A stretch of 55,538 bases of DNA from Acidimicrobiia bacterium (GTDB lineage: Bacteria > Actinomycetota > Acidimicrobiia > Spongiisociales > ZC4RG35): contig JBBDQO010000019.1 in the NCBI GenBank assembly GCA_040905925.1, positions 1 to 55,538 on the forward strand. The letters are read 5' to 3'. The notes beneath the pieces are model-generated. The model made no database searches and had not been told where the DNA came from. It was given only the letters and a program-made list of their open reading frames with translations. The number at the start of each line of letters is the position of its first letter. Position 1 is the first letter of the stretch. The position numbers were made by a program, and so were the translations under genes. This document shows, one piece after another, positions 30,557 through 33,871 of this stretch.

Positions 30557-31693
30557 CTAGGTTCGGATCAGTTCTCGGAGCCGGGGGTGGAGCCTGGTTC
30601 GGTCCGGGGGGTAGATTCGGCCGTTCGGTTTCCGGAAGACCAACTTGCCCCCGGGGTCGCCTTCAATCGACCAGCCGTGTTCGTGTACGAACCGGTGGTG
30701 GTACCCGCACAACAGGATCAGATTTTCCAAGTCGGTAGGCCCCCCGTCGGCCCAATGCTGGATGTGGTGACCATGAACCCAACCCTGATGGGGACATCCC
30801 GGGAACCGACAACCCCCATCCCGGAACCAGAGCTGACGACGCAGCCACCCGGGGATCATCCGGGTTCTTCGTCCCACCCCGAGAACACGACAGTCGTCAT
30901 AGACCGCGGTTTCGATGATGGCATCACAGGCCAAGCGTCGTGCCGTCTCCGAAGCAACAACCGGGCCCGCCTCCAACTCGGCCACCCCGGTCGTGTCGGT
31001 GTGCACGGTGAGCGCTTCGAGGTCGGCGTGGACCGTCACCTGAACCGAAGGTGAAGACTCGTCACCACTGGTGGCACACAAATCGACCAACCCATCCGCC
31101 AACCGGACCGGATACGGATCGAACATCCCGGATTCAGGATTAGGACCAAACCGGTCGGCTCGAGCCCGGATCGCGGTCTCCACCAGATGCAGGTCCCCAC
31201 CCCCCAGCCGGGCGTGGAGACGACCCTCAGTCCCATCCAGACTGTGCTGGATCATCAACCAACGCTTCTCCCAAGCAGCCCGCTCCTCCTCAACCGAAGG
31301 CGGATGGGATCGGCGGGCGGCCCGATCCAGAGCAGCATTCGACAACCCCAAAGCCTCCTCGATCAGAGCCTCTTCGGTGTCTGGGGTTGCCATCCGAGAA
31401 ATCGCATCCACCTGATCCAAAGACAATTCCCCAGCAGCGAAACGTTCCCGAAGCAAAGGGGAATCCTGGAGTCTCCGGGCCACCCCTACCAACTGAGAAG
31501 CAGTCGAATGCCTCAACCCGAACCGAGCCGAAACCCACTGGCCCAGATCCCGAGCACCATCCGCTAGAAACTGTTGCCGGTGGTCAGCTTCGATCAGCCA
31601 CTCACACGCCGCCGCCAATCCAGCCGAAACCAAACCCAAGAAATGGCCGATCCCCAGATCGACCTCATCATTGGAAACCCTCTCCCACTCCAT
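30557..31693 (-). CDS. DUF222 / HNH endonuclease (13E12-repeat-like family)
   Basis: ARRLACDA, RDGGCRFPGC, HHIQHWADGGPTDLENLILLCGYHH HNH motif; start ATG 31693 (leaderless) or 31705. Confidence 0.9.
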   Translation of the reverse strand: MEWERVSNDEVDLGIGHFLGLVSAGLAAACEWLIEADHRQQFLADGARDLGQWVSARFGLRHSTASQLVGVARRLQDSPLLRERFAAGELSLDQVDAISRMATPDTEEALIEEALGLSNAALDRAARRSHPPSVEEERAAWEKRWLMIQHSLDGTEGRLHARLGGGDLHLVETAIRARADRFGPNPESGMFDPYPVRLADGLVDLCATSGDESSPSVQVTVHADLEALTVHTDTTGVAELEAGPVVASETARRLACDAIIETAVYDDCRVLGVGRRTRMIPGWLRRQLWFRDGGCRFPGCPHQGWVHGHHIQHWADGGPTDLENLILLCGYHHRFVHEHGWSIEGDPGGKLVFRKPNGRIYPPDRTRLHPRLRELIRT

Positions 31694-31698
31694 ACCCC

Positions 31699-31722
31699 CG
31701 AACATACGTTCCCCCTGTGACA
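31699..31722 (-). promoter_or_regulatory. LexA box overlapping a PafBC/RecA-NDp-like promoter of the DUF222/HNH gene
   Basis: CGAAC-ATAC-GTTCC (31699-31712); minus strand TGTCAC-N10-TATGTT then 7 nt to ATG 31693. Confidence 0.65.
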
Positions 31723-31726
31723 GAAA

Positions 31727-31753
31727 GGTAAGTATGTATTGACAACACGTACG
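31727..31753 (+). repeat. Left terminal inverted repeat of the IS
   Basis: GGTAAGTATGTATTGACAACACGTACG. Confidence 0.93.
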
Positions 31754-31766
31754 TGTAGAGTATAAT
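31739..31766 (+). promoter_or_regulatory. Consensus sigma70/SigA promoter of the transposase (likely leaderless mRNA)
   Basis: TTGACA-N16-TATAAT followed 6 nt later by ATG 31773, no SD; spacer contains palindrome ACACGTACGTGT. Confidence 0.85.
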
Positions 31767-31772
31767 ACAGGT

Positions 31773-32684
31773 ATGGCAGCGAGAACACGTTCATCAAACG
31801 AACCGGCAGCGTCGACCGAATCTCAAATGACGTACACCCGGTTCATGGAGATCTTCCCGAATCACGACGCGTGTCTCGACCACCTCAAGGAGATTTTCTA
31901 CCGCGACGGGACCATATGCCCGGGTTGTGAGAAGCGGACCAAGTTCCACCGGATCAGGGGCCGGTCAGCGTATGGGTGTCAGTACTGCGGACATCAGGTT
32001 TACCCGACTGCTGACACCATTTTTAACAAGTCGACGGTGAGCCTCCAACTATGGTTTTGGGCGATCTACCTAATGTCCTCGACTCGCTGTGGAATCTCCG
32101 CCAAGCAGCTCGAACGGGAAATCGGAGTCACCTACAAGACGGCACATCGGATGTTCAAGATGATTCGCAGTTTGCTGTCTGATGACGTCCAGACGCCTCT
32201 CAACGGACAGGTTGAGATCGACGAGATGTACGTCGGCGGTACTCGGAAGAGCAGTAAGGGTCGCCTTCCCGCTCCTAAAACGACGGTTCTCGGGATGATG
32301 GAGCGCGGTGGGCGTGTCTCCGCCAAAGTCGTACCCGACGCTTCGATGCTTTCCCTCTACCCGTGGATTGGCAAGACCGTTGGGGAAGGCAGTCAGGTGT
32401 TCACCGACGAACACACGGTTTACATGAACATGCCCAAGACTCGCTTCCTACATGAGTCGGTCAATCACCGATCCGGGGTATTCGTCAGCGGAGACGCCCA
32501 TACCCAATGCCTCGACGGATTCCTGGCGTTGGTCAAGAATGGGTTGAGGGGCGTTTACCACTCGGTCAGCAGCGAGTACCTGCAGGCCTACTTGGATGAG
32601 TACTCGTTCCGGTTCAACCGGCGTGACGGTGTTGAGCCCTTGTTCTGGGCGATCCTCAGTCGTGTTCAGAAGGAGGCGGCGTGA
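31773..32684 (+). CDS. IS1595 family transposase (ISXO2-like DDE domain, N-terminal Zn ribbon)
   Basis: CPGC...CQYC Zn ribbon, GISAKQLEREIGVTYKTA HTH, VEIDEMYVGG, VFTDE, VNH, YLDEYSFRFNRR. Confidence 0.95.
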   Translation: MAARTRSSNEPAASTESQMTYTRFMEIFPNHDACLDHLKEIFYRDGTICPGCEKRTKFHRIRGRSAYGCQYCGHQVYPTADTIFNKSTVSLQLWFWAIYLMSSTRCGISAKQLEREIGVTYKTAHRMFKMIRSLLSDDVQTPLNGQVEIDEMYVGGTRKSSKGRLPAPKTTVLGMMERGGRVSAKVVPDASMLSLYPWIGKTVGEGSQVFTDEHTVYMNMPKTRFLHESVNHRSGVFVSGDAHTQCLDGFLALVKNGLRGVYHSVSSEYLQAYLDEYSFRFNRRDGVEPLFWAILSRVQKEAA

Positions 32685-32832
32685 CCTCGTCCTCGTCCTC
32701 GTCCTCGTCCTTCCTCGGCGTCGTCTTGGTCACCCGGTACAAGTCGAGGCGGAATCGACCCTCGTCATACTCGGGGTCCTGCTTCTCTTTGATGTCCTCG
32801 GGAGGTTCGCGGGGTAGCTTGTTATCGCTCAT
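32656..32832 (-). CDS. Small acidic IS cargo protein (58 aa), absent from the ORF track
   Basis: Manual translation MSDNKLPREPPEDIKEKQDPEYDEGRFRLDLYRVTKTTPRKDEDEDEDEVTPPPSEHD; AGGA upstream; overlaps transposase 3' end convergently. Confidence 0.55.
   Translation of the reverse strand: MSDNKLPREPPEDIKEKQDPEYDEGRFRLDLYRVTKTTPRKDEDEDEDEVTPPPSEHD
32685..32708. repeat. (CCTCGT)x4 microsatellite
   Basis: Encodes the DEDEDEDE tract of the small minus-strand ORF. Confidence 0.8.
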
Positions 32833-32877
32833 GCGGTCCTATCGAAACGACGATGAGTAACATGTTCTCGTAGGTTG

Positions 32878-32963
32878 CGGAGGAAGGCGGAATTGAACCG
32901 CACACCCACATGGGGTGCCCGTACTTTCTAAGGGCCGGACCACTCCTCGTGGCTTCTTCCTCC
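32878..32963 (-). tRNA. Non-canonical tRNA-like gene with 8/4 fold and long variable arm (allo-tRNA-like); anticodon ambiguous (TAG or AGA)
   Basis: GGAGGAAG AA GCCAC GAGGA GTGGT CCGGCCCTTAGAAAGTACGG GCACCC CATGT GGGTGT GCGG TTCAATT CCGC CTTCCTCC G: 8-bp acceptor stem, 4-bp T stem with TTCAATT loop, 5-bp D stem, 6-bp V arm, G73; anticodon stem imperfect; CCA not encoded. Confidence 0.75.
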
Positions 32964-32974
32964 GACACACGGAG

Positions 32975-33005
32975 ACAGGGAAGGGTCAATACGACCCTTC
33001 CCTGT
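32975..33005. other. Perfect 13-bp inverted repeat (hairpin) between the cargo ORF and the tRNA-like gene
   Basis: ACAGGGAAGGGTC-AATAC-GACCCTTCCCTGT; overlaps the stop codon of the 32986-33498 ORF. Confidence 0.8.
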
Positions 33006-33498
33006 TCCTTTCTCCAACCGGCGTGTTCTCTCCTTTCAGTGGGGTTGCGCCGGTGGAGTGATCTCTGACGGGGCGGAAACGGCCCCGTCCAACCTTCTTG
33101 ACTATCCCCTCTCGTTCGAGGGCTGCCATCGCGGTACGCATTGCGTCCCTCGGATTTTGAGCATCGATGATGATGCCTTCCATTCTGAAGTGAGCTTCGA
33201 GAGCGTCGTAGGCCCATGTCCGCATCGGGCCATTCAGCATGAGGTCGCGGCAAGCCTCTTTCGGGCCGCGACGATGGATGTCCGTCACAGTGAGGCTGAC
33301 GGTGCCTGTTGGGAATCGGGCGGACCCGTTGTTTCCGGCCAGAACATCGCTCAGAGATGGTGGTTCCTGCCCGGTCAACGCCTTATACGCCGCATCCAAC
33401 CGGACCAGTTCCTGACCCTCAGGACCCGAGAACAACGCTTCGATGATGTCTAGCCGAGCCTGTAAAACCGATTTGGCGATCTGCGTTGAATCAGTCAT
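32986..33498 (-). CDS. IS cargo protein, predicted N-terminal helical segment plus C-terminal winged helix-turn-helix
   Basis: 170 aa from ATG 33498 (extended -10 TGTTATCCT 8 nt upstream); C-terminal RDAMRTAMAALEREGIVKKVGRGRFR resembles a wHTH recognition helix and wing. Confidence 0.65.
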   Translation of the reverse strand: MTDSTQIAKSVLQARLDIIEALFSGPEGQELVRLDAAYKALTGQEPPSLSDVLAGNNGSARFPTGTVSLTVTDIHRRGPKEACRDLMLNGPMRTWAYDALEAHFRMEGIIIDAQNPRDAMRTAMAALEREGIVKKVGRGRFRPVRDHSTGATPLKGENTPVGERNREGSY

Positions 33499-33602
33499 AG
33501 AAGGGGAGGATAACAGGTTCCACACCGGATGAACGGGTTTCCGCGCGTCCAACCGGTGATCGCGTTCCGCAGCGCTCCGGATCACGACTGCGACCTACGA
33601 CC

Positions 33603-33629
33603 CGTACGTGTTGTGACTACATACTTACC
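33603..33629 (-). repeat. Right terminal inverted repeat of the IS
   Basis: Reverse complement GGTAAGTATGTAGTCACAACACGTACG. Confidence 0.93.
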
Positions 33630-33682
33630 GACAGAAACAAGAGGGTTGTGACCGGAAATCAAAGAAACTACCGGGTAGCTAC

Positions 33683-33865
33683 AAGCCCCCCTCCCCGGCT
33701 TCGCCGGTACTCCCCCCAACGCTCACTTCGTTCACTGGGGGGAGAAATGCTCGCTTCGCTTCTGGGGGGAGAAACAAGGGAGAACCGTTATCGCGCAACG
33801 GGAAGCCCCCCTCCCCGGCTTCGCCGGTACTCCCCCCAACGTCGCTTCGCTCCTGGGGGGAGAAA
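33683..33865. repeat. REP-like palindromic repeat cluster (two full copies 120 bp apart plus a partial copy)
   Basis: 39-bp identical AAGCCCCCCTCCCCGGCTTCGCCGGTACTCCCCCCAACG at 33683 and 33803, each followed by ...CTTCG...CTGGGGGGAGAAA; a third CTGGGGGGAGAAA at about 33762. Confidence 0.85.
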
Positions 33866-33871
33866 TGGGCG

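Follow-up and report, generated by a model that had tools for sequence, protein, structure and literature searches.

Why should an insertion sequence (IS) of less than 2 kb carry a gene for a tRNA, and one that standard tools fail to recognize? The question is raised by a 1903-bp element of the IS1595 family in a 55,538-nucleotide stretch of DNA from an Acidimicrobiia bacterium (contig JBBDQO010000019.1 of assembly GCA_040905925.1; hereafter, the window is this whole stretch). In the element, the transposase gene is faced on the minus strand by a 170-aa open reading frame (ORF), a hairpin, a tRNA-like gene and a 58-aa ORF, in that order (Table 1). A first-pass annotation of the window took this series for a real unit, and named a decoy against tRNA-cleaving toxins, mistranslation or addiction, and control of transposition as its possible roles. 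The unit is borne out by our comparison, as it recurs in related elements in the same order, on either side of the transposase gene. As to its role, we give a probability of about 60% to the reading that the element tRNA reads CUA codons kept as sentinels in the transposase gene of the same element, probably inserting serine or alanine, and would thus limit transposition in trans. This reading starts from a conserved tRNA structure with covarying pairs, a constant anticodon, conserved synteny, and transposase codons that vary together with the tRNA gene.

Codon use in the transposase varies with the tRNA gene

Relatives were collected with the transposase. When one genome per species was scanned, 429 transposase loci were confirmed, of which the best 80 were examined; together with the best 80 of a metagenome collection, 160 loci were fetched in all, and their transposases are 48-78% identical to that of the window. 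A profile of the element ends places both ends in 70 elements of 1.9-4.9 kb, among which the window's element is the smallest. The tRNA-like genes were pooled from three detectors, i.e. a covariance model built on 13 sequences, ARAGORN, and a strict structural scan of all 70. Such a gene lies within the ends of 32 of the 70 complete elements (22 Ser-like, 9 Ala-like and 1 other), so that relatives do carry it, a point which the first-pass annotation had left in doubt. All 32 genes have UAG in the anticodon loop.

CTA, the codon corresponding to this anticodon, is enriched in the core genes of the elements. It accounts for 14.6% of the leucine codons in the transposases (203/1389) and for 22% in the small ORFs that converge with them, in both cases with the codons in the transposase/small-ORF overlap left out. 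The share is 3.4% in flanking long ORFs, 2-7.5% in the cargo gene families and 2.15% in the window's genome. Among all synonymous codons in the transposases, CTA tops the enrichment, at 4.3-fold, and 146 of 225 CTA codons fall in columns dominated by leucine. The possibility that the CUA sites align with serine or alanine in relatives was rejected, because the main sites are invariant leucines. As a separate observation, in the tail-to-tail overlap of the two genes (window positions 32656-32684; 70 elements), the complement of a CTA frequently serves as the TAG stop codon of the opposite gene.

The main association concerns the leucine of a Y-L-M motif in the helix-turn-helix region. Leucine occupies this column in 69 of the 70 transposases, and its codon is CTA in 31 of the 32 tRNA-bearing elements versus 4 of the 38 tRNA-less ones. 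On the transposase tree, presence of the tRNA switches at least 13 times. Over nine phylogenetically independent pairs, the codon follows the tRNA in 7.9, runs counter to it in 0.0 and does not differ in 1.1 (median sign-test p 0.008); with a narrower first list of tRNA genes, CTA is found in 26/27 versus 9/43 (median p 0.03, 11 pairs). A second coupled column has CTA in 22/32 versus 5/38 elements (pair test p 0.06). In the metagenome replication set, distinct tRNA-bearing elements have 9 CTA and 2 other codons, and complete tRNA-less elements 1 CTA and 6 other codons (Fisher 0.013). Of the two exceptions in this set, L148/L149 is genuine, and in the other the tRNA looks ordinary and its contig is incomplete. 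At the invariant leucine of the small ORF, no association of CTA with the tRNA was observed (7/23 versus 10/41). As far as such comparisons of sequences reach, the tRNA and the CTA codons are shown to co-evolve, and this part is common to the view that the tRNA restrains the transposase and to the view that it helps its synthesis. The coupling also fits two of the roles named earlier for the cargo, mistranslation and control of transposition.

The tRNA body predicts serine or alanine

The Ser-like type is characterized by a long variable arm, a GGAG-type acceptor stem and, in all 22 copies, discriminator G. Most of these copies combine an 8-bp acceptor stem with a 4-bp T stem (8/4); a 7/5 branch was found in those of L044, L056 and L114, and in that of L016, an incomplete element outside the 22. 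The nine Ala-like copies are 67-71 nt long and have G3:U70 and A73 in 9/9. When compared with the 45 tRNAs of the window's genome, tRNA-Ser is nearest for 18 of the 22 Ser-like copies, the window's included, and tRNA-Ala for 6 of the 9 Ala-like copies. The top matches of the Ser-like model in this genome are its three tRNA-Ser genes (57.6, 36.9 and 36.8 bits), and no tRNA-Leu body was found among the element copies. The sister transposases of L014 and L087 (support 100) are accompanied by an Ala-like and a Ser-like tRNA, respectively, with the same UAG and CTA. Since the body has been swapped while UAG and CTA were kept, the conserved entity is, as judged from these sequences, the anticodon-codon pair and not the amino-acid identity.

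Seryl- and alanyl-tRNA synthetases are the two synthetases that ignore the anticodon. Because the bodies are tRNA-Ser-like in the window or tRNA-Ala-like in relatives, and not tRNA-Leu-like, insertion of serine or alanine seems to be likely. The gene would not be needed for reading CUA as such, as the window's genome and three of five other hosts have a tRNA-Leu(UAG) of their own, contrary to the possibility that hosts are devoid of it. The element tRNA would therefore compete with this host tRNA rather than fill a gap.

The opposite sign of effect has to be considered as well. Extra CUA decoding, whatever amino acid is charged (possibly leucine), could raise translation of the transposase and the small protein, so that the module would switch transposase synthesis on. 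Phage-borne tRNAs matching phage codon usage and the bldA/UUA logic in Streptomyces are parallels of such a device. The codon-tRNA coupling fits it equally well, CTA is enriched specifically in the two core IS genes, and the position of CTA at invariant leucines, as described above, implies that leucine is the functional residue. Even the anticodon loops of the canonical-looking copies resemble the loop of the host tRNA-Leu(UAG). What makes us regard this explanation as unlikely is the rest of the molecule, i.e. discriminator G in all Ser-like copies versus A73 of host tRNA-Leu genes, the alanine determinant G3:U70 in every copy of the other type, and a tRNA-Leu body in none, together with the tRNA-Leu(UAG) that hosts already have. 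The two views, restraint and help, would part over which amino acid is inserted and over the sign of the effect.

Structure of the tRNA-like gene in the window

The copy in the window combines acceptor and T stems of 8 and 4 bp, respectively, all paired, with a D stem of 5 bp and a long variable arm; its discriminator is G, and no CCA is encoded. Its anticodon UAG sits in an enlarged 8-9-nt loop on an imperfect stem. The same arm, 20-21 nt long with the imperfect stem and the 8-9-nt loop, is common to its Ser-like subgroup, along with the 8/4 branch, an AA linker and the 5-bp D stem. Since MAFFT misaligned the 5' halves of the tRNA subgroups, per-subgroup alignments and the covariance model were used instead. 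In the eight sequences of the window's subgroup, pairing is seen in 93.3% of the cells, and both bases have changed in 13 of 26 pairs; none of 500 shuffles is as high and slid registers give 48-52%, with the proviso that the structure was derived from the same alignment and is somewhat favored in this test. The acceptor stem is 96.9% paired and the T and variable stems 100% each, with compensatory changes. In the main subgroup (13 sequences), 90.8% of the cells are paired, compensatory changes occur in 16 of 21 pairs, and again 0/500 shuffles reach this level.

These data bear on whether the gene might be a decayed, functionless capture of a host tRNA by chance, an outcome against which the first-pass annotation had cautioned. 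The irregular anticodon stem and the failure of standard detectors would suit it. However, the same irregular arm is conserved with covariation among elements whose transposases are ~50-60% identical, and the odd arm is therefore a conserved feature, not decay. Together with the constant anticodon and the conserved synteny, this contradicts chance capture, to which we give next to no credence.

The enlarged loop, conserved in 8 to 11 subgroup members, raises another possibility, that four bases are read at the sentinel codon and that the truncated DNA-binding fragment resulting from the frameshift inhibits transposition. ARAGORN at low threshold does call a four-base anticodon, and the +1 frame after Leu100 of the window closes after ~28 codons, as read by eye. 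The same coupling is, however, shown by other subgroups with ordinary 7-nt loops, the base after CTA is unconstrained (47 C, 46 A, 43 G and 41 T), and no conserved +1 product was seen, though none was sought. Quadruplet decoding therefore seems very improbable.

Two known identities were tried for the window copy and rejected. With the tRNA-Sec model of Rfam (RF01852), it scores 28.5 bits (E 0.006), below the gathering score of 47; its anticodon is UAG and not UCA, and its branch is of 12 bp and not 13 bp. By ARAGORN, the window's genome has no tRNA-Sec gene. Canonical tRNA-Leu(UAG) is excluded by discriminator G in place of A73, by a loop of more than 7 nt, and by its dissimilarity to the genome's own tRNA-Leu(UAG) (contig C51, A73). 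In relatives, ARAGORN calls tRNA-Leu(UAG) for the genes in the same slot. The covariance model gives the window copy 34.1 bits; as this score is not discriminating, family membership of the copy rests on the subgroup structure, the position and the anticodon.

Three other unusual tRNA-like genes were seen inside elements, just upstream of the transposase gene (L048:3309-3395, L110:3342-3416 and L049:3215-3288). They include one class II gene with AUC, one Glu(UUC)-like gene and one with UAG in an 8-nt loop.

Proposed mechanism and the evidence against it

In the reading that we prefer, the element is a transposon that looks active, with the transposase gene and the convergent small protein gene as its core, and a module comprising a putative DNA-binding-type protein of 170 aa, the hairpin and the tRNA with anticodon UAG lies between the small gene and the right end. 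The tRNA would be a functional, selected RNA reading CUA, the host's rarest common-box leucine codon, and transposase output would depend on it via the CUA kept at critical leucines (Leu100 in the window). Its most likely effect would be the insertion of serine or alanine at the sentinel leucines. Since leucine is the functional residue there (69/70), such insertion is expected to harm the helix-turn-helix region, and inactive or interfering transposase would accrue in proportion to the tRNA level. The 170-aa protein may set the transcription of the module, and RNase P would free the tRNA from the co-transcript, the hairpin being left as the 3' end of the upstream mRNA.

A more specific version can be put forward tentatively, as one that we would sooner doubt than assert. 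A deliberately mistranslating tRNA that accepts serine or alanine could compete with host tRNA-Leu for one or two sentinel CUA codons, placed where the transposase cannot do without leucine, and could act as a dose-dependent sensor of copy number, through dead or dominant-negative transposase. The choice of the host's rarest leucine codon as target would keep damage to the host proteome low.

Several findings weigh against the preferred reading. As for the gene itself, ARAGORN with default settings finds no tRNA in the element, the tRNA-Sec match in Rfam is sub-threshold, the 34.1 bits of the window copy are no higher than the scores of the genome's ordinary class II tRNAs, and its anticodon arm is non-canonical. 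Certain structurally irregular allo-tRNAs are inactive in E. coli, according to the accessible part of PMC5389517. The tRNA census is the union of three detectors, and one member, L074, rests solely on a low-threshold ARAGORN call; at the 80% threshold ARAGORN gave 375 hits in elements versus 243 in shuffles, which is too noisy to use. As for the coupling, the residue of the window at the second coupled column is Gly, CTA being absent there; the tRNA occurs with no CTA in L046 and L148/L149, and CTA with no tRNA detected in L039, L040, L041, L070 and L164. Related elements are not independent, and the pair tests rest on 9-11 pairs only. The canonical tRNA-Leu(UAG) with A73 in the window's genome, and likewise in three of five other hosts checked, makes CUA readable without the element tRNA. 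Finally, no RNA run is among the public runs that hold the stretch.

The 170-aa ORF and the hairpin

The tRNA gene has two locations: past the small ORF and on the minus strand, as is the case in the window, or immediately before the transposase gene on the plus strand. In 18 of the 32 tRNA-bearing elements, covering both body types, the ORF immediately upstream of the tRNA is a member of the 170-aa family, and in the remaining ones it is a DUF5343-type or unrelated ORF. By profile, a family member occurs in 19 of the 70 elements. A protein search with the 170-aa ORF found 4 relatives, and the family profile found 32 representatives at E <=0.001 among 1.8 billion proteins; with the family alignment, no relative was confirmed in metagenome and genome contigs.

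The function of the 170-aa protein was labelled as that of a winged helix-turn-helix regulator in the first-pass annotation, a label behind which we found weak matches only. No Pfam or NCBIfam match and no informative name was obtained in the sources searched. The matches are to a JetB/MukE-like model of PADLOC (E 0.002), to GntR-type winged helix-turn-helix and S19e profiles of the PDB (E 0.04-0.25), and, weakly, to a nearest named Atlas cluster in which 15% of the members have HARE-HTH (score 0.85). A winged helix may be present in the C-terminal part.

A G+C-rich hairpin ends 5-25 nt before the tRNA, and its stem has at least 10 pairs in at least 19 of 25 cases examined, as counted by eye from dot-bracket structures with no shuffle control. 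Since there is too little room for a separate tRNA promoter, the simplest reading would be that the tRNA is co-transcribed with the upstream ORF and released by RNase P.

This arrangement could also be a device for processing or stability alone, in which the tRNA-like fold and the hairpin would serve as a cleavage signal for RNase P/RNase Z that parts the upstream mRNA from that of the small ORF and makes both more stable, with no decoding. A hairpin and a tRNA 5-25 nt apart between two same-strand ORFs, a unit that holds its position on either side of the transposase, and an anticodon loop that varies in size (6-9 nt) would all be consistent with it. Such a signal leaves unexplained the invariant UAG, the CTA enrichment and the coupling, as well as conserved aminoacylation determinants such as G3:U70, and we suppose that it is improbable.

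A decoy or antidote against tRNA-cleaving toxins or defence nucleases, which was among the roles first suggested, found no support. One close relative (L015:71-1335) does fill the slot of the ORF-tRNA module with a gene for a PIN domain (Pfam 2e-10) and one for a 253-aa partner, and allo-tRNA genes are reported near toxin-antitoxin systems in the accessible part of PMC5389517. No nuclease gene stands beside the tRNA in the window or in most elements, and a decoy would leave the CTA codons of the transposase and their coupling unexplained. Scarcely any weight is given to it here.

The convergent small ORF

The 58-aa ORF had been regarded as part of the cargo. Instead, it is a divergent copy of a conserved second gene of the clade: 64 of the 70 elements have a homologue of it in tail-to-tail arrangement with the transposase gene, and one is present even in the nearest relative, L038 (~1.1 kb), which has no cargo, nothing being found between the small ORF and the right end. 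In the window, its overlap with the 3' end of the transposase gene is 29 nt, and its codon 6 is CTA. The acidic tail that attracted attention is confined to the window's copy. No Pfam or NCBIfam match and no informative name was found for the small ORF in the sources searched; we infer that its product may be an accessory protein of transposition.

The element, its insertion site and its clade

The first-pass annotation described an intact IS1595 transposon with 27-nt ends and a perfect 8-bp duplication, and this holds. The inverted ends match at 25 of 27 positions, and the transposase matches DDE_Tnp_IS1595 (PF12762, 3e-34) and the N-terminal zinc ribbon Zn_ribbon_IS1595 (PF12760, 5e-9) of Pfam, as well as the NCBIfam model for IS1595 (NF033547; 2e-55, 187.9 bits at a cut-off of 75). 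Both its transposase type and its ends with the 8-bp duplication place the element in the IS1595 family. The 12/12 sigma-70-like site lies within the left inverted end, its -35 hexamer being part of the conserved end sequence, and stops 6 nt short of the ATG of the transposase gene; the transposase mRNA is therefore probably leaderless.

Table 1. Coordinates of the element, its genes and codons, and the adjoining features in the window
Feature	Position	Strand	Basis or remark
Element, 1903 bp	31727-33629		
Target-site duplication, left copy (GACAGAAA)	31719..31726	n/a	read from sequence; 8/8 identical to right copy
Target-site duplication, right copy (GACAGAAA)	33630..33637	n/a	read from sequence
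Left terminal inverted repeat, 27 nt	31727..31753	+	sequence; end-profile E 5e-7
Right terminal inverted repeat, 27 nt	33603..33629	-	sequence; end-profile E 2e-7
Promoter-like site, 12/12 versus sigma-70 consensus	31739..31766	+	motif scan: 1 found, 0.7 expected in shuffles
IS1595-family DDE transposase, 303 aa, uninterrupted	31773..32684	+	ORF, Pfam, NCBIfam
Transposase CTA codon, Leu93	32049-32051	+	sequence
Sentinel CTA codon, invariant Leu100 (Y-L-M, helix-turn-helix region)	32070-32072	+	alignment
Transposase CTA codon, Leu226	32448-32450	+	sequence
58-aa ORF, divergent copy of the clade's small protein	32656..32832	-	ORF, homologues in relatives
tRNA-like gene	32878..32963	-	covariance model, structural scan, subgroup alignment
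Anticodon UAG	32928-32930		
G+C-rich hairpin, 13 bp	32975..33005	-	11 nt upstream of tRNA-like gene; covers stop codon of 170-aa ORF
170-aa ORF, small protein family, putative C-terminal winged helix	32986..33498	-	ORF, profile
DUF222/HNH endonuclease-type ORF	30557-31705		Pfam 2e-12 and 5e-7
Dispersed 65-90-bp repeat	33685-33774, 33805-33870		

An empty-site allele, as looked for in the first-pass annotation, was found in G010 of the same genus, where the same two flanks are joined through a single GACAGAAA. In G004, also of this genus, the site is uninterrupted with a variant 8-mer in place of GACAGAAA. The flank on the yebC side is kept in 13/13 same-genus genomes (the tally includes the unpublished G011, on which nothing rests). 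The window's own 2.48-Mb genome has one copy of the element, and among 60 relatives probed with its right half the element is absent, a low-complexity stretch being the sole match. A 2688-nt contig from a public run, possibly the source sample, spans both junctions with no difference. No joint across the element, and hence no empty site, was found in the contigs of three DNA runs of one study, two of which may be from the source sample.

The element belongs to a large clade in Actinomycetota. The hosts of the relatives are mostly metagenome-assembled genomes of Solirubrobacterales, Thermoleophilia, Gaiellaceae and Acidimicrobiia, and the transposase of the nearest relative is 78% identical to that of the window. 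Elements of this Solirubrobacterales type are common in soils and peat. In 400 genomes of the phylum, relatives of up to 60% identity were found (the unpublished G148 and G206 are in this set, but no conclusion depends on them), and a plasmid collection gave no match to the transposase above 41% identity. Perfect 8-bp duplications flank 63 of the 70 elements, and in the other seven the ends are offset by one or two bases or the flanks are unlike. In L042, L045, L079, L048, L050 and L110, the same A-rich 8-mer ending in GTA, or its reverse complement, is duplicated in different genomes, which may point to target preference. In one further case (L051:3330-3460), the insertion of a related element lies ~30 nt past a host tRNA-Sec(UCA) gene, on its downstream side.

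The IS1595 family, as Siguier, Gagnevin and Chandler in 2009 and ISfinder are said to describe it, includes passenger-carrying members and ISNwi1-type ends. The present clade shares with such 'transporter IS' the zinc-ribbon DDE transposase, the 8-bp duplications, variable genes between the transposase gene and one end, and short ends that start with GG and contain a TAT-type motif. From the resemblance of the end motifs, it may belong to the ISNwi1-type subgroup. The literature searched gives no account of the convergent small ORF, of passenger tRNA genes or of codon-tRNA coupling in IS1595, although the supplements of PMC5389517 may list similar loci.

Relation to known systems

Insertion sequences restrain themselves via truncated proteins, frameshifting or antisense RNAs, and InsA of IS1, the inhibitor protein of Tn5 and the antisense RNA of IS10 are such self-limiting devices. 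The likeness is that an element-encoded, trans-acting product would cut active transposase as the copy number climbs. The agent proposed here would be a tRNA acting via decoding, and not a truncated protein or an antisense RNA. No codon-tRNA circuit in any insertion sequence is described in the literature searched; if true, such a circuit within a 2-kb element would be a new principle of IS self-control.

Dedicated tRNAs combined with rare or special codons in key genes form translational switches elsewhere, as with bldA tRNA-Leu(UAA) and the UUA codons in Streptomyces regulators, phage tRNAs, and suppressor tRNAs that gate late genes. In the present case, both partners are on one 1.9-kb transposon, and the tRNA body predicts an amino acid other than the normal one of the codon. 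A UAG anticodon in an enlarged loop on a non-leucine body is also known from the yeast mitochondrial tRNA-Thr(UAG), which reads the CUN leucine box as threonine. That is an organelle-wide reassignment, unlike the mobile element considered here, and the sequences are unrelated.

The closest precedent is provided by the allo-tRNAs, of 8/4 and 9/3 structure, with serine or alanine identity and non-cognate anticodons including those for leucine (Mukai et al. 2017, PMC5389517, accessible part). The element tRNAs of 8/4 type have the same structural attributes: the 12-bp branch, the long variable arm, determinants of the serine or alanine type (discriminator G or G3:U70), and a leucine anticodon on a non-leucine body. 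When they were reported in 2017, allo-tRNAs appeared as active missense or nonsense tRNAs whose purpose was left open and which were loosely tied to mobile elements. Those with leucine anticodons insert serine or alanine in E. coli and are toxic, according to the same part of PMC5389517. Ties to transposable elements are suspected in the accessible parts of PMC5389517 and PMC7609411, as is also the case here; toxin-antitoxin loci are suspected as well. Occurrence is reported from Clostridia, Proteobacteria and Acidobacteria (PMC7609411, accessible part).

The present elements differ in that the hosts are Actinomycetota, the extent of the carrier is known from one end to the other, UAG is the anticodon in every case, and candidate target codons lie in the carrier's own transposase. 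In addition, the Ala-like type is short and class I-like with a 7/5 branch, and some Ser-like copies have 7/5 as well, unlike the 8/4 allo-tRNAs. The earlier statement that the architecture is not known to be characterised thus stands in part: a tRNA in IS1595 elements was not encountered in the literature searched, whereas the tRNA-like RNA has its precedent in allo-tRNAs, as far as the accessible parts of PMC5389517 and PMC7609411 go.

If the tRNA mistranslates as proposed, this would be the first defined biological role for allo-tRNAs. Their purpose would also become testable, since it is now defined which element carries the tRNA, where this element ends, which genes accompany the tRNA and which codons are its probable targets. 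For genetic-code engineering, the elements may be of interest as compact natural sources of tRNAs that look orthogonal and have anticodons for sense codons. Annotation is affected as well, since the tRNA genes of these elements escape standard tools.

Neighborhood of the element

To the left of the insertion lies an ORF of the DUF222/HNH endonuclease type, a family whose members are frequently mobile in Actinobacteria. At the empty sites of G010 and G004, the 5' end of this ORF and the region upstream of it are conserved. Directly to the right of the element, a dispersed 65-90-bp repeat is found, with many copies in the window's genome and in every same-genus genome searched. The summed contig depth of this repeat is 200-650, compared with ~10 nearby, and it looks like a repeat of the repetitive extragenic palindrome (REP) or miniature inverted-repeat transposable element (MITE) type.

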